A DNA stretch of 64,000 nucleotides from Escherichia phage IrisVonRoten: sequence record MZ501075; one strand, written 5' to 3'. Position 1 is the first letter of the stretch, and every line of letters begins with the position of its first letter. A program made the position numbers and the translations under genes. Positions 2,646 through 63,964 of the stretch are shown here, piece by piece. The notes beneath the pieces were generated by a model that did no database searches, was not told the origin of the DNA, and was given only the letters and a program-made list of their open reading frames with translations.

Positions 2646-3072
2646 TACTAAGTACAAACGTGATGCCATTTCCATAATGAGGGATGGTATAAAATCTAGG
2701 TATAGTAAGGATGGTTGCTGTGCTATATGTGGTAGTAGTGAAGACCTAGAACTTCATCATTATCATACTATATCTCAGCTAATAAAAAAATTTGCTAAAG
2801 AACTCCAGCTGGATTTCACTGATGAGAATATCGTCCTTTCAAATAGGGAAGCATTCTACAAGAAATATGAGCATGAGTTAGTTAGGGACGTGGTAACATT
2901 GTGCCAGCACCATCACCAACTATTACATAAGGTTTACACGAAAGAACCTCCCTTATTTTCTGCTAATAAGCAAAAAGCGTGGGTTCAAAAGCAGAAAGAC
3001 AAAATACAGAATCCTCAAGAAAAGACACAAGTCAAGACTGAAACAAAATCAGGATTCGCAAGGTTCTTATAA
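2635..3072 (+). CDS. HNH homing endonuclease
   Basis: CCAICGSSEDLELHHYH ... LCQHHHQLLH (HNH-type motifs); strong RBS GGAGGAG before ATG at 2635 (track ORF begins at upstream TTG 2620). Confidence 0.6.
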   Translation: MATNTKYKRDAISIMRDGIKSRYSKDGCCAICGSSEDLELHHYHTISQLIKKFAKELQLDFTDENIVLSNREAFYKKYEHELVRDVVTLCQHHHQLLHKVYTKEPPLFSANKQKAWVQKQKDKIQNPQEKTQVKTETKSGFARFL

Positions 3073-4289
3073 TGGGTTTTAAAAGCTGGATTACTGAAAA
3101 GCTAAATCCGGGTCAACGTATTATAAGAGACATGGAACCAGTTAGTCATCGCACTAACCGTAAGCCTTTTACCACTGGACAAGCCTATAGCAAGATTGAG
3201 ATTCTCAATCGAACTGCCAATATGGTTATAGATAGTGCGGCGGAGTGTTCTTATACTGTCGGAGATAAATATAATATTGTTACGTACGCTAATGGCGTCA
3301 AAACAAAGACTCTAGACACTCTCTTAAATGTACGACCTAATCCATTCATGGATATAAGCACATTCCGTAGACTTGTAGTCACTGACCTACTTTTTGAAGG
3401 TTGTGCATACATCTATTGGGATGGCACATCGCTTTACCATGTCCCGGCTGCTCTTATGCAGGTCGAGGCAGATGCCAATAAGTTTATCAAAAAATTTATA
3501 TTTAATAATCAGATAAACTATCGCGTAGATGAGATTATCTTTATAAAGGATAACAGTTACGTGTGTGGCACAAATTCTCAAATTTCTGGACAATCTCGTG
3601 TTGCTACTGTTATTGACTCTCTTGAAAAGCGTTCTAAAATGCTTAACTTTAAAGAGAAATTCCTAGATAACGGAACCGTGATTGGTCTTATTCTTGAGAC
3701 GGATGAAATCCTGAACAAGAAATTGCGTGAGCGTAAACAAGAAGAATTACAACTCGATTATAATCCTAGTACTGGTCAGTCTTCTGTCCTGATTCTAGAT
3801 GGTGGTATGAAAGCTAAACCGTACTCCCAAATATCCTCTTTTAAAGATCTAGACTTTAAGGAAGACATCGAAGGATTTAATAAATCTATTTGTCTAGCCT
3901 TTGGAGTTCCGCAAGTACTGCTTGATGGTGGTAATAATGCGAATATTCGACCAAACATCGAATTGTTCTATTATATGACTATCATTCCTATGCTGAACAA
4001 ACTGACTAGTTCTCTTACTTTCTTTTTTGGTTATAAGATTACTCCTAATACTAAGGAAGTAGCTGCATTAACACCAGATAAAGAAGCTGAGGCTAAACAT
4101 TTAACCTCATTGGTTAATAATGGTATTATGACTGGTAACGAAGCTCGTTTAGAGCTGAACCTTGAACCTTTAGATGATGAGCAGATGGATAGGATTCGTA
4201 TTCCTGCTAACGTTGCTGGTTCTGCAACAGGTGTATCTGGTCAAGAAGGTGGTAGACCTCAAGGTTCCACCGAGGGAGATAAAGAATGA
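3072..4289 (+). CDS. portal protein
   Basis: 405 aa; position between terminase and head genes; size matches T5 portal as recalled; start overlaps upstream stop (TAATG). Confidence 0.8.
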   Translation: MGFKSWITEKLNPGQRIIRDMEPVSHRTNRKPFTTGQAYSKIEILNRTANMVIDSAAECSYTVGDKYNIVTYANGVKTKTLDTLLNVRPNPFMDISTFRRLVVTDLLFEGCAYIYWDGTSLYHVPAALMQVEADANKFIKKFIFNNQINYRVDEIIFIKDNSYVCGTNSQISGQSRVATVIDSLEKRSKMLNFKEKFLDNGTVIGLILETDEILNKKLRERKQEELQLDYNPSTGQSSVLILDGGMKAKPYSQISSFKDLDFKEDIEGFNKSICLAFGVPQVLLDGGNNANIRPNIELFYYMTIIPMLNKLTSSLTFFFGYKITPNTKEVAALTPDKEAEAKHLTSLVNNGIMTGNEARLELNLEPLDDEQMDRIRIPANVAGSATGVSGQEGGRPQGSTEGDKE

Positions 4290-45591: not shown

Positions 45592-48352
45592 GTTCGGACA
45601 TTACTTCTTCTGCCATAGCTTTCTCCTCCTCTGTCATGAATTTGAAAGGAATTGGCATACACTCTATTTTACAATAGGTTCTGTACCAGTCTACGATATT
45701 CTCCGTGTTCATATCTTTACCAATACCCATCATACCAAGATACATTCTAGCATATTTTGGGTTCGCACTCTGACCTGTTTTAAGGAAGAAGTCCTTCTTC
45801 TTACCTTTCAGAGCTTCTATGAATGGTTTAATGGTCACATTTGAACATTTCTTAATATCTTCCCAGAACATCTCGTGCATCTTATGGAAGAATGCAGCTC
45901 GATCATTCGGCTTATCTTTGATATATTGTTCAACATGCTCAACTGTTACATCTTTAATAGACTCAAGATGATAGTAGCGAACAAGAAGTAGTTTAGCTTC
46001 ATACGCATCCACATGACGTGGAGCACAATAATCCGGAGTTGAATGTAGAATAGCTTTGATTCGCTCTTCTGTGTACTCTTTACCAGCACCTTCAATAGTT
46101 CCCCAGCTTTCGCTGAAAATATCAATAGTTGCACCCTGATCAAGCAAGTAATAACGTAAGGTACTAGTATAGTTTCTAGATTCCAGCTCCCTGCGACGTG
46201 CATATAATTGCTGTGCTAACTCCAGCCAACCCTCATCAATATTATATTGTTCAGAACCTGCAGAGAATCCACTCGTAGATTTATCAATAAAATAATAGAT
46301 ATTCTGAGCACCACGGTCGCGCCTGATTGCTTGAAAACGCATGTTTGGCGCTTGATTACTAGTTCTCGTAATAACAAATACGTTATCGAAGTAGTTGAAG
46401 TCAACGCCACTCGTTACGGATGGACTACATAATAAGCAATCAATTTGTTGATCAATTAGCTCATTAGTTGTGTAATCCAGAATACGTCTAATATCCACAT
46501 CAGATGTAGAGTTTGAATGGATTTCCTTAACTAACGCACCAGTATTGCGACGTAGTGCCATACCCTTCTCATTAAGCTCATCAGGCCCACAATCAGATAC
46601 TAGAATAGATTTCTCACCCATCTCTAGAGAAGTCTGAAGTGCAACCCAAATACTGGACTCATCAGGGAACTCATAAGCATGAGCTTTTGACAGCATTTTA
46701 CGGTGATGATTGTAAAATGCTACTGGTTTATCGAACTCAATCAAAGAACCATATGCTTCAATTGTTTCAGCACTAATATCACCATCTGATAGTATAATGA
46801 TTTTTGCAGTTGCAAGAATATCACGAAGAACCTGAATACACTCACGACGTTGCTTAACAACCGGGGCGAATAATAGGTCATTCATTACTGCATCACATTC
46901 ATCTATAAAGATTGCATCAATTTGACCAATAAAACTCTTAAACTTATGCAAAGAGTGAATGGTTGTGGACATACGGTCAATAGCACCACGCTTGAAATTA
47001 AGCATATCTACAGACTTATCATATTGTCCTGCACTAAATTTCTTAGCATTTGAAGATACCAGTGCTCTAGTGTTGGTAATTGCTAAGAAATTACCTTTAA
47101 TAACTCCTGAATCCAGCCAACGAACAACAGCTGTTGTTTTACCCGTGCCTAGACTTGCTTTTACAAAAGTCATATAGCCTTCTGGTGGTACAGTATTTAA
47201 TTTCAAGAAGTTGTCGGTCTCTAGTGAATTAGTTTCTAGCTTTTTAAGGGGGATACCTTTTAATATTTCAGGGATCTCACGCTTAGAGTTATTCACAAAG
47301 GCTTTTAATGCCTGCTTCCGTCCGTTATTGAAATAATCCTGAATATTACGGCTATTATCTTTAGTTGCAATATATTCTGATAAAGCTGGGCGGATTTCTT
47401 TTTCTAGCCAACCAAAATCTACCCCATCCTCTAACGCTCGGTGATATAGCTTTGGAATAATACGTAAGTATACCCCATCATCAGCCTCTTCTAGCTCACT
47501 GATAGTTTCCTCTACTTTATCAGAGGCAGCTTTTTTACCTTTAATTTGATCGAGTAAAGAGTAGAATTCCTCTTTAAACTCTCCTCTAGTTGTTTCATAG
47601 TCAACTAGATTATTAGGTAAATTTACTTTTGAGCCTTTAACAAATACCAGACGTGAAGCACCCTCCGCTTTAAACGGATCAACTATACCATCAGTAAATA
47701 AAGGATCTGCAAAATAGTGGAGCTGTACGGAAGAGTAATAAGCTAAGTCGGCAATATCAAAGCCATACTTTTGTCTACTACTTTCGTTGATAGATGTAAA
47801 TAAGAACTTGATCTGACCCTGTGTAACTTTAACATTAGATTCTAGTATTAAGTGCATTCGGATACCTGGTTTTAGTCCAGCCGAAGACGATGCATGAGCA
47901 ATAAACCCTGCATCAAGAGGAAACATATCCTCACTAATACTATTCAACATCCTAATAATAAGACGCGCCATGCCAACAAGATCAAACTTGTTACAACCTC
48001 CTGTATCTACAATACCATCCACATCCATTGCGATTATATGACTTGGATTAGATACATTAAAGTTGCCCTTCTTACGTCGCACATTATTTTTGGGTGCAAG
48101 ACATCGACCTCGCACCGCAACGATATGAGGGTCAGACGTTAAACGTCTCATAAGAGGAAGCATTTCTACTAGGGTTTGAGGATCAACTTCGTCAATTACA
48201 TCAAACTTGAAGGGCATTGAAGCTGGTTTACCTTCAGGATGCTTTGAGGAAAATCTTTTAGCAAAAAGATAATCTTCTGCTTTAACTTCTCGCCAATTGC
48301 CTGTGGCTAAATCGCGATGAAATCCTGCATGACCTTGTAGGATTGAAAACAC
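45566..48352 (-). CDS. large replication protein: N-terminal primase-like (AEP DxD) region plus Walker A/B ATPase/helicase
   Basis: Walker A ASLGTGKTT, Walker B FIDECDAV; N-terminal IIAMDVDG (DxD); start uncertain, proposed GTG at 48352 preceded by AGGAG (track ORF begins at 48430). Confidence 0.5.
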   Translation of the reverse strand: MFSILQGHAGFHRDLATGNWREVKAEDYLFAKRFSSKHPEGKPASMPFKFDVIDEVDPQTLVEMLPLMRRLTSDPHIVAVRGRCLAPKNNVRRKKGNFNVSNPSHIIAMDVDGIVDTGGCNKFDLVGMARLIIRMLNSISEDMFPLDAGFIAHASSSAGLKPGIRMHLILESNVKVTQGQIKFLFTSINESSRQKYGFDIADLAYYSSVQLHYFADPLFTDGIVDPFKAEGASRLVFVKGSKVNLPNNLVDYETTRGEFKEEFYSLLDQIKGKKAASDKVEETISELEEADDGVYLRIIPKLYHRALEDGVDFGWLEKEIRPALSEYIATKDNSRNIQDYFNNGRKQALKAFVNNSKREIPEILKGIPLKKLETNSLETDNFLKLNTVPPEGYMTFVKASLGTGKTTAVVRWLDSGVIKGNFLAITNTRALVSSNAKKFSAGQYDKSVDMLNFKRGAIDRMSTTIHSLHKFKSFIGQIDAIFIDECDAVMNDLLFAPVVKQRRECIQVLRDILATAKIIILSDGDISAETIEAYGSLIEFDKPVAFYNHHRKMLSKAHAYEFPDESSIWVALQTSLEMGEKSILVSDCGPDELNEKGMALRRNTGALVKEIHSNSTSDVDIRRILDYTTNELIDQQIDCLLCSPSVTSGVDFNYFDNVFVITRTSNQAPNMRFQAIRRDRGAQNIYYFIDKSTSGFSAGSEQYNIDEGWLELAQQLYARRRELESRNYTSTLRYYLLDQGATIDIFSESWGTIEGAGKEYTEERIKAILHSTPDYCAPRHVDAYEAKLLLVRYYHLESIKDVTVEHVEQYIKDKPNDRAAFFHKMHEMFWEDIKKCSNVTIKPFIEALKGKKKDFFLKTGQSANPKYARMYLGMMGIGKDMNTENIVDWYRTYCKIECMPIPFKFMTEEEKAMAEEVMSELGATNEDA

Positions 48353-48957: not shown

Positions 48958-49152
48958 TTAATCATAAAAAAGACCACGAATAGTATTAGCAAATTTAAGT
49001 ATAATAGCGCGGTTTGAGCTACTTAACTTTTTAATATCGAAAGTGGGATCAGTCAAATATCTCGCCATAAATTTTACTTGTTTAGCGGAAAGTTGACCCT
49101 TATTCCACTTTTTAATTTTACCATAACATACCCAATATTCTTTATTCATCAT
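48958..49152 (-). CDS. hypothetical small protein
   Basis: 64-aa ORF. Confidence 0.3.
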   Translation of the reverse strand: MMNKEYWVCYGKIKKWNKGQLSAKQVKFMARYLTDPTFDIKKLSSSNRAIILKFANTIRGLFYD

Positions 49153-49534
49153 TTAGTCCCGGAACATAGATTCCAACACGATTTAATTGTTCTTTAGCTT
49201 CTTTGAGAATACCTGGAGTGTACTCCCAAATATCATCTTCCACCTGTAAAAGATGGGGCGAACAACCGTCACCAGGCACACGACATATGGCCAAACCACG
49301 TGGATGGAACAAAGAGAAATTTAGTGCAACAATTAAACCCATAGCAGACAATTCATTCCAATCCAATTCCCATTCCCTAGCGTAGCCTGATAGGAAAACA
49401 CCAACACAGGGATCATCTATTTGCTGCTCTGGAAAAGTGAAGGAGGCTTGTCTTACCCCCAACCAACGTTGTAGCAGCTTCTCCGCACGCTTCACCAAAC
49501 TAGGATCAATCTGACGCCAATATACTTGTTTCAT
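49142..49534 (-). CDS. hypothetical protein, tandem paralog A
   Basis: 130 aa; shares MGL[IV]xALN[FY]xLF.P and G[IY]x[VI]PGL motifs with the adjacent ORF 49543-49971. Confidence 0.4.
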   Translation of the reverse strand: MKQVYWRQIDPSLVKRAEKLLQRWLGVRQASFTFPEQQIDDPCVGVFLSGYAREWELDWNELSAMGLIVALNFSLFHPRGLAICRVPGDGCSPHLLQVEDDIWEYTPGILKEAKEQLNRVGIYVPGLNDE

Positions 49535-49542
49535 TGTGCCCC

Positions 49543-49971
49543 TTAGGCAGTTAAACCCGGAATTTGATAACCAAAACGACGAAGTTTTTGGATACCATCA
49601 TTTACTTCTTCCGGTGAGTAAGACCAACCGTAATGTTCATTAATTTGAAAGCCTGGAGATTCACTGGTTTTATAATTAACAACAATACGGTGTTTATTGG
49701 GCATAAATAGCTTATAGTTTAATGCAAAAACCAAGCCCATTTCATCTAACTCTTTCCAGCCGACAATCTCTTCAAGACCATCCTCTACCTGCACAATTAA
49801 ACCAATACAGGGAGCTTCTTCAATCTCACCTTTAAAAGCAAAGGAGATTTCATTATTCTCACACCATATTTTCAGAGCATTAATAGCCTCATTGTACAGG
49901 TTGTCTGGAAGAGTACGCCAAAAATTAACCAATATTGGGTTAGCTTCTTTAGAGAATACATTATTGAACAT
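49543..49971 (-). CDS. hypothetical protein, tandem paralog B
   Basis: 142 aa; alignable with ORF 49142-49534 over ~90 residues. Confidence 0.4.
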   Translation of the reverse strand: MFNNVFSKEANPILVNFWRTLPDNLYNEAINALKIWCENNEISFAFKGEIEEAPCIGLIVQVEDGLEEIVGWKELDEMGLVFALNYKLFMPNKHRIVVNYKTSESPGFQINEHYGWSYSPEEVNDGIQKLRRFGYQIPGLTA

Positions 49972-49973
49972 AT

Positions 49974-50480
49974 TTACACCTTAAATTGTTGTAGGGCTTT
50001 ACACATTTCAAGATCTGGACTAAATTCTAACATATAGCTAACAGCTTTTAAATCTTGAAGATTTATTCCAGTTCTACCGTTGACTATAACCGTTGGATAC
50101 TGGTACATCATAGCACCAGCGTCATCCAGCACACACCAATGTTTGAGCTTATGCTTTTCAACAAAGCGAAGAACAGAATTACCCCTAGATAGCCCACCAC
50201 CAGTAAAATCCGTTGTACCAAGAAAACGATCGATAAGATCTAATCCGGTCATAATCTGAACGTTCTCCATCTCATTCCTAACAGAGAACCATGAAGATAC
50301 CCCAACAATCATTATTGGAGAAGGACTAATAAAGTCCTGAAAAGCCTTGAGAAGCGGTTTAAAAACCCAGTCACTTCCAAAGAAAATCTTTTCATCATCA
50401 GGTGCATGGTGATGGGAGATGCTCGAGTTGAGCACCCCATCAATATCTAGAAAAATAATTGGAGTATTACTTATTTCCAT
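49974..50480 (-). CDS. HAD-superfamily phosphatase-like protein
   Basis: 168 aa; N-terminal IIFLDIDGVLN (HAD motif I DxDGx). Confidence 0.45.
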   Translation of the reverse strand: MEISNTPIIFLDIDGVLNSSISHHHAPDDEKIFFGSDWVFKPLLKAFQDFISPSPIMIVGVSSWFSVRNEMENVQIMTGLDLIDRFLGTTDFTGGGLSRGNSVLRFVEKHKLKHWCVLDDAGAMMYQYPTVIVNGRTGINLQDLKAVSYMLEFSPDLEMCKALQQFKV

Positions 50481-50649
50481 TTTTGTTCCTTTCTAAGAAC
50501 GTATCATACTCAACTGTATCAACATATATGACACCATAGTCATCGGATTTATAGTCCATTTCCCATAGCTCACATCGATAGCACCAACTACCATCCGCCC
50601 ATACAAATATATCATCGGGATGTGTATATACAGATTTAACTATGGACAT
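50467..50649 (-). CDS. hypothetical small protein
   Basis: 60-aa ORF bridging the HAD and Sir2-like genes with overlaps. Confidence 0.25.
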   Translation of the reverse strand: MSIVKSVYTHPDDIFVWADGSWCYRCELWEMDYKSDDYGVIYVDTVEYDTFLERNKNGNK

Positions 50650-51464
50650 ATCTGTTTCCCCGGCATATAAGGTCTACCCTCTAGATGAGCTTCCACACGA
50701 GCAATAAAACCAGGGTCACTGAAAGCATCTACCGCACCTTTACTCCAGTAAGGAATACCACGATCTTCCAGTTGGTACATATCACTACGAGTCATACCTT
50801 GATAGCCTGGTTCCGCCGCTAAGGCACTATCGTAGTAGTTAACTACCATAAGTTTCGCAGCAGTCCGATTAAGAACAGGGAATAATTCCCAGTAGAAGTT
50901 AATTACTTGGTTAGAGCAACCAACCACCACAATCATATCTTGACTGGTAATACCATCAAAAACATTGTACATCTCAGCGTATGCTGGAGCACACTCCCCA
51001 AAGAAGATTACATTAGGTTTAACCCATTTATAATCATCAGGGTCAATAGAGCTATACCCAACATCAATAACTCGTTTATTACTACTATTGTAGCTATCAG
51101 CTACAACAACCTCTTTTAAATACCCGTGAATGTGCAGAATGTCACTATGTGGAACGCCAGCACGCTCAATAAGGTCATCAACGTTGGTAGTTAAGTTTAC
51201 TACTTGACCCGGATATTTCTTATACCATTCACCAATACGCAGGTGTGCAAGATTGGGCTCAACAGTTTCTAACTCTTCACGACGTTTGTTGTAAAACATG
51301 TGGGTTTTATGATAAAAGTTACCACGAAAGGCATGAATATTACATACCTCTTCTAAGTCATAATCATCCCACAATGCTTTACCACTAGCAGTATCAGTAC
51401 GAAAAGCTCGTACACCACTTTCAACACTCAAACCCGCACCGCTAATAATAATTAATCTACGCAC
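50640..51464 (-). CDS. Sir2-family (sirtuin-like) NAD-binding protein lacking the zinc-ribbon cysteines
   Basis: 274 aa; ISGAGLSVESGVRAFR, NLTTNVDDLIERAG, HIHG, VIFFGE, VVGCSNQV align with the canonical sirtuin motifs (as in CobB); no Cys pairs where the Zn module normally sits. Confidence 0.65.
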   Translation of the reverse strand: MRRLIIISGAGLSVESGVRAFRTDTASGKALWDDYDLEEVCNIHAFRGNFYHKTHMFYNKRREELETVEPNLAHLRIGEWYKKYPGQVVNLTTNVDDLIERAGVPHSDILHIHGYLKEVVVADSYNSSNKRVIDVGYSSIDPDDYKWVKPNVIFFGECAPAYAEMYNVFDGITSQDMIVVVGCSNQVINFYWELFPVLNRTAAKLMVVNYYDSALAAEPGYQGMTRSDMYQLEDRGIPYWSKGAVDAFSDPGFIARVEAHLEGRPYMPGKQICP

Positions 51465-60525: not shown

Positions 60526-60807
60526 ATGATTTCAGCCAAAGAAGCCCAAGAACTTGCAGGATTAACAGAAGTACCTGCATTTCTAAAGTTTATAGAAGAA
60601 AAGATTGTAGAAGCTGCTAAGTCTGGAAATACAGAAGTAATTATTCGAGATAATCCTTACGCTAGGTGGCTATATAATCCTAGAGAAATGCCAGGAGCCG
60701 CTAAATCGGTACTAAAAACCTTATCGGATAAGGGGTATCATCTCTCACAATACTACCGAGAAGCCACCTTTGTAGACATGGGTCTTAAAATTAGTTGGGA
60801 GGTATAA
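60526..60807 (+). CDS. hypothetical protein
   Basis: 93-aa ORF. Confidence 0.3.
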   Translation: MISAKEAQELAGLTEVPAFLKFIEEKIVEAAKSGNTEVIIRDNPYARWLYNPREMPGAAKSVLKTLSDKGYHLSQYYREATFVDMGLKISWEV

Positions 60808-61301: not shown

Positions 61302-61330
61302 TCTTGCTTAAAGCCCTCTAATTTAGTATA
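61302..61330 (+). promoter_or_regulatory. T5 early-type promoter flanked by an inverted repeat
   Basis: TTGCTT-N17-TATAAT; AAAGCCCTC (61308-61316) and GAGGGCTTT (61349-61357) form an inverted repeat around the -10 and RBS. Confidence 0.5.
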
Positions 61331-61359
61331 ATATTCGTATTGAAAGTGAGGAGGGCTTT

Positions 61360-61644
61360 ATGCGAATTTATAACTCAAATTCATTAGGATTTAAACCGTT
61401 GAGAAAACGTGCACAATCACCTCGTCAAATAAGAAAGGCTAATATTGGTGAGCCAGAAACACGTCTTCCACCTCCTCCAGAACAACGTTTAGTTTATCTG
61501 GATGAAGAATTAGCTGAACGCGAAGGAAAAGCTCAAGAAGAGATTGAGCGTAAGAAAATGTGTACTGCTCCAGCCTACTCCAAAGGGGCTTATCAGTATA
61601 TCTATACAGCCGAAGAGGCTAAAGATGCGGGGCGTAAAAAATGA
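61360..61644 (+). CDS. hypothetical protein (basic, Pro-rich centre)
   Basis: 94-aa ORF with RBS GAGGAGGG. Confidence 0.3.
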   Translation: MRIYNSNSLGFKPLRKRAQSPRQIRKANIGEPETRLPPPPEQRLVYLDEELAEREGKAQEEIERKKMCTAPAYSKGAYQYIYTAEEAKDAGRKK

Positions 61645-62090
61645 AGATTACTGAATTTAAAGGTGCTTATAGTTTCTTATCTAACTTTTATTTATCACCA
61701 ATTACTTTCGAATATCTAAATGAAATATGGCATGCTGATACTGTAGAACATGCTTTTCAGGCTATGAAATCCGACCAAAAAGATGATGTAGCTCATGTAC
61801 TACGCTCCCTAAATGCAGGAGTTGCTAAACGTAGAGGACGTAAATTAACTCTACGCTCTGACTGGGATAAGGTAAAAGATGATGTAATGCTAGAGCTTTT
61901 ACGGTTAAAGTTTGCAATCCCTGATTTGAGAGATAAACTGTTAGCAACAGAAAATGCAACTTTGATTGAAGGAAATACCTGGGGAGATACATATTGGGGT
62001 GTTTGCCGAGGCATCGGGGATAATACTTTAGGAGTTCTTTTGATGCAGGTAAGGTCTGAAATTAAAAGAAGCTTACAGTTAATAAATTAA
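61641..62090 (+). CDS. NADAR/YbiA-family protein (DUF1768-like)
   Basis: 149 aa; FLSNFY, EHAFQAMK, LLATENATLIEGNTWGDTYWG, NTLGVLLMQVR align with YbiA-type motifs. Confidence 0.6.
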   Translation: MKITEFKGAYSFLSNFYLSPITFEYLNEIWHADTVEHAFQAMKSDQKDDVAHVLRSLNAGVAKRRGRKLTLRSDWDKVKDDVMLELLRLKFAIPDLRDKLLATENATLIEGNTWGDTYWGVCRGIGDNTLGVLLMQVRSEIKRSLQLIN

Positions 62091-62098
62091 AAATTCAT

Positions 62099-62127
62099 TT
62101 GCTAAACGCTTCAAATTCTCGTATAAT
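62099..62127 (+). promoter_or_regulatory. T5 early-type promoter
   Basis: TTGCTA-N17-TATAAT followed by leader ATAAATTGATAAACAA and RBS AAGGAAA. Confidence 0.55.
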
Positions 62128-62165: not shown

Positions 62166-62681
62166 ATGGCTAAGCAGAAAAACGCAAAAACTCAAGCAGC
62201 TACTACAGTTAAAACTTTCCCGCAGACTGAGGCTAACCGCAAAGCTCGTCTGGAACGCCATCTGCGCAAGCACCCTACTGATGCTCAAGCTGCACAGGCA
62301 CTGAATCGTCCGGCTCCGATTCGTCAAAAGCCGAAGGCTAAGAATGCTACTCGTTCTGTAGCCCGCCTTGTGACCTATGTACAGGGTTATGGCCACAAAT
62401 CTGTTCCAGTAACACTGAGTTTCAATGCTGGAGCTGAATTGTTCTCTCGTAATGGCATGGCCATGAAAGATTATGAGAAAGCAGTTAACCAGAAGCGTAA
62501 ACCAACGGCAGATGTACTGCGTGATACTCGCGGACAGTTCGGTTCTGTTAAACCAAATATCTTTGGTGTAGAATATAGCAAAGATAACGTTCGTGCTCTG
62601 TGTTATGGTGTGGGGATTAAATTCACAGGCGATTCTGCTCGTAAATCTGCTAAACCAGCTCGCAAGCGTAAAGCGAAGTAA
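62166..62681 (+). CDS. highly basic hypothetical protein, likely highly expressed
   Basis: 171 aa; Lys/Arg-rich N- and C-termini; strongly optimal codon usage (CGT, CTG, GCT); bracketed by GGGGCGAAAGCCCC-type hairpins. Confidence 0.4.
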   Translation: MAKQKNAKTQAATTVKTFPQTEANRKARLERHLRKHPTDAQAAQALNRPAPIRQKPKAKNATRSVARLVTYVQGYGHKSVPVTLSFNAGAELFSRNGMAMKDYEKAVNQKRKPTADVLRDTRGQFGSVKPNIFGVEYSKDNVRALCYGVGIKFTGDSARKSAKPARKRKAK

Positions 62682-62740
62682 TAGATAGGGGCGAAAGCCC
62701 CTACAGTCAACTAATTCTCTAACCAATCCAGGATATTTTT

Positions 62741-62956
62741 ATGTTCTCTAAGAAACCACGTTCCGTTACTGAAATCGTTGCTTCCTTTACTACTATTACT
62801 GATGAACTTCAAGCTCGTATTGAGGCTGATCAGAAAATTGCTGCTGATATTCAGAAACAGCAGGAAGAACTCGCTCTGAAGTTGGCTGAAACCAACAAGA
62901 GCGAAAAATCTGCCCAAACTATTATGGAAAATATCCTTAAACTGCTTGGCAAGTAA
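62741..62956 (+). CDS. small coiled-coil protein
   Basis: 71-aa ORF, helical heptad-like composition; followed by hairpin. Confidence 0.3.
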   Translation: MFSKKPRSVTEIVASFTTITDELQARIEADQKIAADIQKQQEELALKLAETNKSEKSAQTIMENILKLLGK

Positions 62957-62964
62957 TTTAAATC

Positions 62965-62990
62965 AGGGGGCGAAAGCCCCTCTTATTTGG
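62965..62990 (+). terminator. putative terminator hairpin
   Basis: GGGGC-GAAA-GCCCC followed by TCTTATTT; near-identical stem also at 62686-62703. Confidence 0.45.
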
Positions 62991-63262: not shown

Positions 63263-63964
63263 ATGAAAGTAAAACCATTTGGTATGCTAGATATTGAATC
63301 TCTAGGAACTCCAGGAGATTGTGGTACTACTCATATCGCAATGCCTTCTTTCGCTTTTGTGGCTATGCACGGAATTGATAAAGACCCTGATCTAGTGTTT
63401 GTTACTTTGGATGTACAAGATCAGCTTAACTCTGGAGCTAAAGTTACGGCATCTACTCTAGCATTCTGGATGGATCAAGCTAAGAATAGCCCATCAGCTC
63501 TACATATTATGGAAGCTATGAAGGAATGCAATCCAAAGCTGATTGCTTTTCAAGATGGTAAACATCACTGTACTAATAAGCTAGGCTCTAACTATGCAGC
63601 TTATTCTATGGCTAAAAACATTATGGAGTTGGCTCTAGGTGAGAATGCTTTGTATTATGGCAATGGCCCAGAGTTTGATATGACTATCTACTCTGCAAAC
63701 ACTTTCCATGCTGGAACCAATGAAGAAATAGTTCCGTGGAAATTCTGGAACTTAGGCAATGTTCGATCTCTCCGCAATCTCTGGATGCAGGCTGGTTATA
63801 GTTACAAAGACCTAGAAGCAGAGGGAATTAGCTGGGCAAAAGCTAAGATGGAGAAGATGGACACTATTCGTTATGGGATCTATCCGGTTAAGCATGATCC
63901 AGCATTCGATGCCTTAGTTGAGAGCTATTGTGTTGCAGCTATGGTCGAAAAAATCAAAATTTGA
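63263..63964 (+). CDS. putative DEDDh-type 3'-5' exonuclease (DnaQ-like fold)
   Basis: 233 aa; N-terminal FGMLDIESLG (D-x-E) and C-terminal HDPAFDALVESY (H-x4-D) resemble Exo I and Exo III motifs. Confidence 0.4.
   Translation: MKVKPFGMLDIESLGTPGDCGTTHIAMPSFAFVAMHGIDKDPDLVFVTLDVQDQLNSGAKVTASTLAFWMDQAKNSPSALHIMEAMKECNPKLIAFQDGKHHCTNKLGSNYAAYSMAKNIMELALGENALYYGNGPEFDMTIYSANTFHAGTNEEIVPWKFWNLGNVRSLRNLWMQAGYSYKDLEAEGISWAKAKMEKMDTIRYGIYPVKHDPAFDALVESYCVAAMVEKIKI

Follow-up and report, generated by a model that had tools for sequence, protein, structure and literature searches.

The closest described system to the gene analysed here is AdfN-Bas32, the name given to the identical NADARs of the BASEL phages Bas32 (IrisVonRoten) and Bas33 (HildyBeyeler), both described as "Markadamsvirinae closely related to T5" (Johannesman et al., Nat Commun 2025, PMC11825919; preprint PMC11257639). 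Ectopic expression of AdfN-Bas32 in E. coli neutralised DarT1 toxicity with no phage present, and it brought RB69, T5 and Bas25 back to full titre on DarTG1 hosts but did not rescue T5 from DarTG2 (PMC11825919). The published phylogeny joins AdfN-Bas32 to NADARs from archaea and not to the housekeeping group of YbiA, and it indicates that AdfN-T4 (gp30.3 of the T-even phages) and AdfN-Bas32 were acquired independently (PMC11825919). AdfN-T4 is also a stand-alone phage NADAR and counters DarTG1 by removing guanine-linked ADP-ribose, but it is fully effective only in Tevenvirus infection and on its own does not rescue from DarT1 toxicity, whereas AdfN-Bas32 does. Two bacterial proteins of the same superfamily are relevant as well, namely DarG1, the antitoxin of DarTG1 (E. 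coli C7; Geobacter lovleyi, PDB 8BAT), which hydrolyses ADPr-N2-guanine, and E. coli YbiA (2B3W), which is encoded in the LexA-regulated dinG-ybiB operon and gives no rescue from DarT1 toxicity in vivo.

The NADAR gene and its product

The window, by which we mean the whole analysed stretch of 64,000 nucleotides from sequence record MZ501075, contains the following gene:

61641..62090, + strand: NADAR-domain ORF with ATG start, 149 aa plus stop codon, ortholog of AdfN-Bas32

A NADAR/YbiA-family gene had been predicted at these positions from four motifs, and both the exact ORF and all of the motifs were found (SNFY at residues 14-17, EHAFQA at 36-41, YWG at 118-120 and LGVLLMQVR at 130-138). 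The product matches the Pfam NADAR profile PF08719 with E=8e-22 and 78.7 bits, the gathering cut-off being 35.1 bits, and residues 9-142 cover positions 9-163 of the 163 profile positions; it also matches PHROG 1017 (E=1.2e-44). Among the PDB sequences phmmer found E. coli YbiA (2B3W, E=3.7e-15) and the NADAR of Phytophthora nicotianae (PnNADAR; 8BAU, E=7e-7). An AlphaFold2 model built from the homologue alignment reached a mean pLDDT of 97.8 and a pTM of 0.91, and a Foldseek search of the PDB with this model returned the same two proteins as the only significant matches, YbiA with a TM score of 0.82 and 37% identity and the ADPr-bound PnNADAR with a TM score of 0.76. The model shows the YbiA-like alpha+beta fold with a helical core and small beta-hairpins on its flanks. 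From its sequence the protein can thus be assigned with confidence, and far beyond chance, to the NADAR superfamily.

The product of bas33_0070 from HildyBeyeler, also 149 aa long and encoded at a matching locus (rnh, T5.090 homolog, NADAR, DUF7022 gene), is identical to the window protein in 147 of the 149 residues (98.7%). The two differences, A9T and E104K, both lie in non-conserved columns of an alignment of 47 homologues, and all active-site residues of AdfN-Bas32 are unchanged. Because of this near-identity the window gene is an ortholog of a published and functionally validated anti-DarT1 factor, although the phage of the window is nearest to Salmonella phage MET_P1_179_112, whose NADAR copy is 100% identical. 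Compared with its Bas33 counterpart, the window ORF has synonymous differences at 12 of about 97 sites and nonsynonymous ones at 2 of about 350, and the resulting pN/pS of about 0.05 points to strong purifying selection.

The original prediction had also proposed that a phage NADAR would plausibly antagonise toxins such as DarT, and the properties of AdfN-Bas32, which neutralises DarT1 and restores plaquing on DarTG1 hosts, bear this out for DarT1 and its guanine modification; the proposal does not extend to the thymine-modifying DarTG2, from which T5 is not rescued. Rescue from DarT toxicity by expression of the gene, which had been suggested as a check, is already published for AdfN-Bas32 with a positive outcome, so the gene is not a new lead and the anti-DarT1 function of this NADAR is already known. 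We found no later literature on AdfN in T5-like phages and no description of a knockout in a native T5-like phage.

Active site and comparison with other NADARs

More than 1000 homologues were retrieved from a large protein collection, and the closest of them are about 50-60% identical when the window protein's own cluster and fragments are left out. In the alignment of 47 sequences (homologues 46-60% identical) the positions without any variation include E36, K43, E110, D116 and W119, while K63, G66 and W75 hardly vary. The equivalent residues in other NADARs were taken from phmmer pairwise alignments together with the residue roles given by Schuller et al. 2023:

E36, codon 61746-61748, + strand: PnNADAR E43, E. 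coli C7 NADAR E88, E. coli YbiA E48
K43, codon 61767-61769, + strand: PnNADAR K50, E. coli C7 NADAR K95
K63, codon 61827-61829, + strand: PnNADAR K75, E. coli C7 NADAR K115
R67: PnNADAR R79
W75: PnNADAR W89
E110, codon 61968-61970, + strand: PnNADAR E125
D116, codon 61986-61988, + strand: PnNADAR D130
W119, codon 61995-61997, + strand: PnNADAR W133

The catalytic glutamic acid of the NADARs, the phosphate-binding lysine, the acidic residue corresponding to PnNADAR E125 and the D130/W133 motif are all present in the window protein. The lysine equivalent to K63 is required for rescue from DarT1 in vivo (Schuller et al. 2023). By analogy with the 147/149-identical AdfN-Bas32, which neutralises DarT1 in vivo, we infer that the window protein would hydrolyse guanine-linked ADP-ribose.

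The residue at position 110 is informative about the subfamily, as a glutamic acid marks the YbiA type whereas the DarG1-type NADARs have an aspartic acid and the T4-like NADARs a histidine at this place (Schuller et al. 2023). The window protein shares with DarG1 the superfamily, the equivalents of E88, K95 and K115 and, presumably, the hydrolysis of ADPr-N2-guanine, but it carries Glu110 instead of the catalytic aspartic acid (D171 in E. coli C7). As the NADAR profile already begins at residue 9 of 149, the window protein also lacks the N-terminal beta1-beta2-alpha1 DNA-binding extension. The Foldseek comparison with the DarG1-type protein from Geobacter (8BAT) was weak (TM 0.52, E=0.77), PADLOC reported no match of a DarG model to the window protein and no DarT gene lies adjacent, the neighbours being rnh, the T5.090 homolog and the DUF7022 gene. 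Owing to Glu110, the missing extension, the lack of a DarT operon and the TM score of 0.52, we rejected membership in the DarG1/BC4488 antitoxin NADARs; the protein is instead an orphan, a phage-encoded NADAR with no neighbouring cognate DarT in a T5-like Demerecviridae genome.

A profile alignment places E36 and K43 of the window protein on E36 and K43 of AdfN-T4, which are the residues mutated by Johannesman et al. Pairwise similarity to T4 gp30.3 is not detectable (BLASTP E value of 1.1), the profile match is confined to the N-terminal part (89.7% probability), and the window protein has E110 where the T4-like NADARs have a histidine. Lacking pairwise similarity and this histidine, it was not placed in the AdfN-T4 sequence family and represents a separate lineage, in agreement with the independent co-option concluded from the published phylogeny.

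With E. coli YbiA, the closest solved structure, the window protein has in common the minimal core fold without an extension and the same glutamic acid at the E125/E110 position. The gene could consequently be read as encoding a housekeeping N-glycosidase of the YbiA type that destroys reactive intermediates of riboflavin biosynthesis, in line with names used in GenBank, among them 'YbiA', 'COG3236 / GTP cyclohydrolase II' and 'N-glycosidase', with YbiA as the best structural match (37%, TM 0.82) and with 66.3 bits against the NCBIfam model TIGR02464 (riboflavin biosynthesis intermediates N-glycosidase). However, this score is below the equivalog-domain cut-off of 73.7 bits, no riboflavin genes are located nearby (where rnh, the T5.090 homolog and the DUF7022 gene are found) and what a lytic phage would gain from flavin damage control is not evident. 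Furthermore, the near-identical AdfN-Bas32, which the published phylogeny sets apart from the YbiA housekeeping group, behaves opposite to YbiA in vivo as it neutralises DarT1, and its ortholog in the window is a phage gene and not part of the dinG-ybiB operon. The score, the missing rib genes and the in vivo behaviour make a role in riboflavin metabolism very improbable, and membership in the TIGR02464/COG3236 YbiA-type N-glycosidases was rejected because of the first two.

The locus and its distribution among T5-like phages

The DNA of the region is 95-98% identical to that of many T5-like Salmonella and E. coli phages (Demerecviridae, Markadamsvirinae), with Salmonella phage MET_P1_179_112 as the best match. 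The genes follow in the order nrdA, nrdB, frd, thyA, a 93-aa ORF, rnh, the T5.090 homolog, NADAR and the DUF7022 gene (T5.089 homolog), and this order, being syntenic with the nrdAB-frd-thy-rnh block in T5, is consistent with the location in the early region assumed originally. Around the NADAR gene we identified:

61304..61332, + strand: probable promoter of a two-gene unit (TTGCTT, 17 nt spacer, TATAAT), identical in T5
61360..61644, + strand: upstream 94-aa ORF, T5.090 homolog, PHROG 4593 (unknown function)
61505..62090, + strand: segment separating NADAR-bearing phages from classical T5, made up of the 3' end of the upstream ORF, which has diverged, and the complete NADAR ORF
62099..62127, + strand: strong sigma-70-type promoter (TTGCTA, 17 nt spacer, TATAAT), identical in T5, where it is 'promoter P-H 207'

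The stop codon of the upstream ORF overlaps the start codon of NADAR (ATGA), so the two genes are probably transcribed together and coupled in translation. The T5 counterpart of the stretch 61304..61332 is annotated as a promoter (46337..46411); a consensus promoter scan missed it, since the -35 hexamer fits in only three of the six positions, and we read it from the alignment. The same scan did list the promoter directly behind the NADAR stop codon, which serves the next gene, DUF7022, and forms the right boundary of the NADAR unit. With one promoter in front of the T5.090 homolog and the other right after its own stop codon, NADAR is the second of the two cistrons that make up a short unit. 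The upstream 94-aa ORF was considered as an obligate partner of NADAR and rejected, as T5 keeps this ORF without having a NADAR.

Classical T5 (NC_005859) does not carry the NADAR gene but proceeds directly from T5.090 via promoter P-H207 to T5.089. In a three-way alignment T5 shows a clean gap across the whole NADAR ORF and identity returns at the NADAR stop codon. On the left side, the identity of window and T5 per 30-nt block is 30 of 30 until about 61505 and then falls to 25, 27, 20 and 14 of 30. T5 is strongly restricted by DarTG1 (Johannesman et al.), and this natural variation, a DarTG1-sensitive phage without the gene, agrees with an anti-DarT1 role. Using megablast, the NADAR gene was found in 94 phage records with every copy at least 95% identical, whereas the downstream neighbour is present in 227 records and any part of the 2.5-kb region in 444. 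The NADAR gene is thus an accessory module. The contrast between the 94 uniform NADAR copies and the identities of 80-99% for the downstream gene might appear to speak for a cassette spreading recently and independently by horizontal transfer, but we do not claim this, as a sliding-window comparison shows the same degree of conservation for the upstream flank (96-100%) and traces the low identity of the downstream gene to a hypervariable core within the DUF7022 gene.

This core (62241..62390, in the DUF7022 gene at 62166..62681, + strand) is 74-76% identical to T5_ev212 and slur09 with flanks at 96-99%, a sign of mosaicism or of diversifying change confined to one part of a protein with no known function. 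Three further genes of the region deserve mention. A 71-aa ORF (62741..62956, + strand) with terminator-like hairpins on either side (at about 62685-62704 and 62966-62981) is a further accessory gene of small size, which slur09 and T5_ev212 have and Bas33 lacks, the alignment showing a gap at 62691-62990. The 93-aa ORF between thyA and rnh (60526..60807, + strand) has no Pfam match and occurs in Bas33, slur09 and T5_ev212, while classical T5 has no annotated gene at this site but a 133-bp gap with a promoter. A protein of 233 aa (63263..63964, + strand) contains an Rv2179c-like 3'-5' exoribonuclease domain (PF16473, 34 bits), and its relatives are labelled inconsistently as 'metallopeptidase' (Bas33, UTK0009) or 'exonuclease' (T5.087).

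The linkage of NADAR and rnh is kept across the Demerecviridae, although the slots differ among three loci. In Vibrio phage VPG01 the NADAR gene (3492..3938 of the examined locus, 34% identity) is located directly upstream of rnh, in Salmonella phage UTK0009 (Epseptimavirus; 2989..3438 of the examined locus, 60% identity) it lies between rnh and the T5.090 homolog, and the window copy sits one gene further from rnh than that of UTK0009. These differing slots suggest either an ancient presence followed by rearrangement and loss or a repeated gain at one hotspot.

An NAD/ADP-ribose theme among the early genes had also been proposed on account of a Sir2-like gene, which is indeed present in the window:

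50640..51464, - strand: Sir2-family gene (PF02146, 86.1 bits), 273 aa, corresponding to T5.102

While this gene is real, its functional link to NADAR found no support. A pair of the phage Sir2-like protein as writer and NADAR as eraser of ADP-ribosylation would fit the NAD/ADP-ribose chemistry common to both families and the genuine Sir2 gene in the window. Against such a pair, a distance of about 10 kb separates the two genes, which lie on opposite strands and belong to different transcription units, and AdfN-Bas32 works in E. coli without any other phage factor. As T5 has the Sir2 gene (T5.102) without a NADAR, the two are not co-inherited, and the presence/absence pattern largely refutes the pairing, which we therefore consider extremely improbable.

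Beside the Sir2 gene a 167-aa protein (49974..50480, - strand) is encoded that matches HAD_SAK_2 (PF18143, 74 bits), the type of HAD domain present in RNA-repair proteins of the 'Swiss Army Knife' kind. The label 'Sir2 (NAD-dependent deacetylase)' on its homolog T5.105 and on PHROG 18062 is probably wrong; the real Sir2 is the 273-aa neighbour. Directly downstream of these two genes follow tandem paralogs of unknown function (49142..49534 and 49543..49971, both - strand) with two DUF7415 repeats each (E values of about 1e-31 to 1e-33).

Proposed mode of action and significance

Adding to what was observed for the ORF, its family and fold, the conserved active site, the near-identity to AdfN-Bas32 and the accessory status, we propose that the gene very probably encodes a stand-alone NADAR ADP-ribosylglycohydrolase, an 'orphan antitoxin' orthologous to AdfN-Bas32, which is expressed early and reverses the guanine ADP-ribosylation caused by DarT1 so that replication is unblocked. 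NADAR would be made early in infection, as its position in the nucleotide-metabolism/replication block suggests, using the promoter that precedes the T5.090 homolog. Once the DarTG1 system of the host is triggered, DarT1 would attach ADP-ribose to N2 of guanines in the phage DNA and thereby block its replication. The NADAR would then hold the ADP-ribose via K43, K63, R67 and W119, with K43 on the phosphates, and in this lineage E36 and E110 would presumably hydrolyse the N-glycosidic bond between ribose and guanine. The unmodified DNA would be restored and replication could proceed, to the probable benefit of this particular phage. Without action on thymine-linked ADP-ribose no protection against DarTG2 is expected.

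In vitro hydrolysis and the mutants E36A and K43A have been reported for AdfN-T4 only, whereas the evidence for AdfN-Bas32 is the ectopic rescue in vivo (Johannesman et al.). Since hydrolysis and catalytic mutants are thus known only from an unrelated lineage, AdfN-Bas32 may in principle act by sequestration of the toxin and not by hydrolysis. Two further points speak against the proposal to some degree: A9T and E104K, though in non-conserved columns, set the window protein apart from the protein used in the experiments, and YbiA, its nearest relative of solved structure, gave no rescue from DarT1.

DarT1 may also not be the main natural target of this NADAR. Reversal of its modification could be a side activity of an enzyme that acts mainly on different conjugates of ADP-ribose, for example guanine- or cytidine-ADPr that other ART toxins place on RNA or DNA, or soluble immune signals derived from ADP-ribose, and the gene would then protect against defences other than, or besides, DarTG1. 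E110 is typical of the general NADAR/YbiA groups and not of DarG1 (Asp) or the T4-like proteins (His), NADAR-/YbiA-type enzymes removed cytidine-ADPr from DNA and RNA while DarG1 and the T4 NADAR did not, and other ADP-ribosylating defences are named as possible targets by Johannesman et al. too. It is the removal of cytidine-ADPr by enzymes bearing this glutamic acid that leaves room for broader substrates. On the other hand, the rescue to full titre on DarTG1 hosts is sufficient to explain why the gene is retained, and hydrolysis of a soluble signal by any NADAR was not found in the literature examined, and we regard other main substrates as unlikely compared with the reversal of DarT1 modification proposed above. 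Somewhat more room may be given to the tentative idea that the T5-like AdfN lineage is a broad-spectrum eraser of base-linked ADP-ribose (guanine and cytidine, in DNA and RNA), for which the YbiA/NADAR-type Glu110, the minimal core fold and the independence from a phage co-factor could speak; such an eraser would confer protection against ART-based defences beyond DarTG1. The lasting linkage to rnh, from Vibrio to Salmonella and E. coli phages, could mean that the enzyme acts on single-stranded DNA at the replication fork.

With a near-identical ortholog already validated experimentally, the gene has little value as a discovery and its main value lies in annotation and host-range prediction. 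In GenBank the orthologs are found as 'swarming motility protein YbiA', 'GTP cyclohydrolase II / COG3236', 'glycosylase', 'DUF1768' or 'hypothetical protein', and none of the examined records of relatives carries an anti-DarT1 (AdfN) label. About 94 deposited genomes of T5-like phages could be relabelled as encoding an anti-DarT1 NADAR (AdfN). Furthermore, knowing whether a T5-like phage carries the gene should allow its plaquing on strains bearing DarTG1 to be predicted, also for Salmonella and E. coli phages used in therapy or biocontrol.
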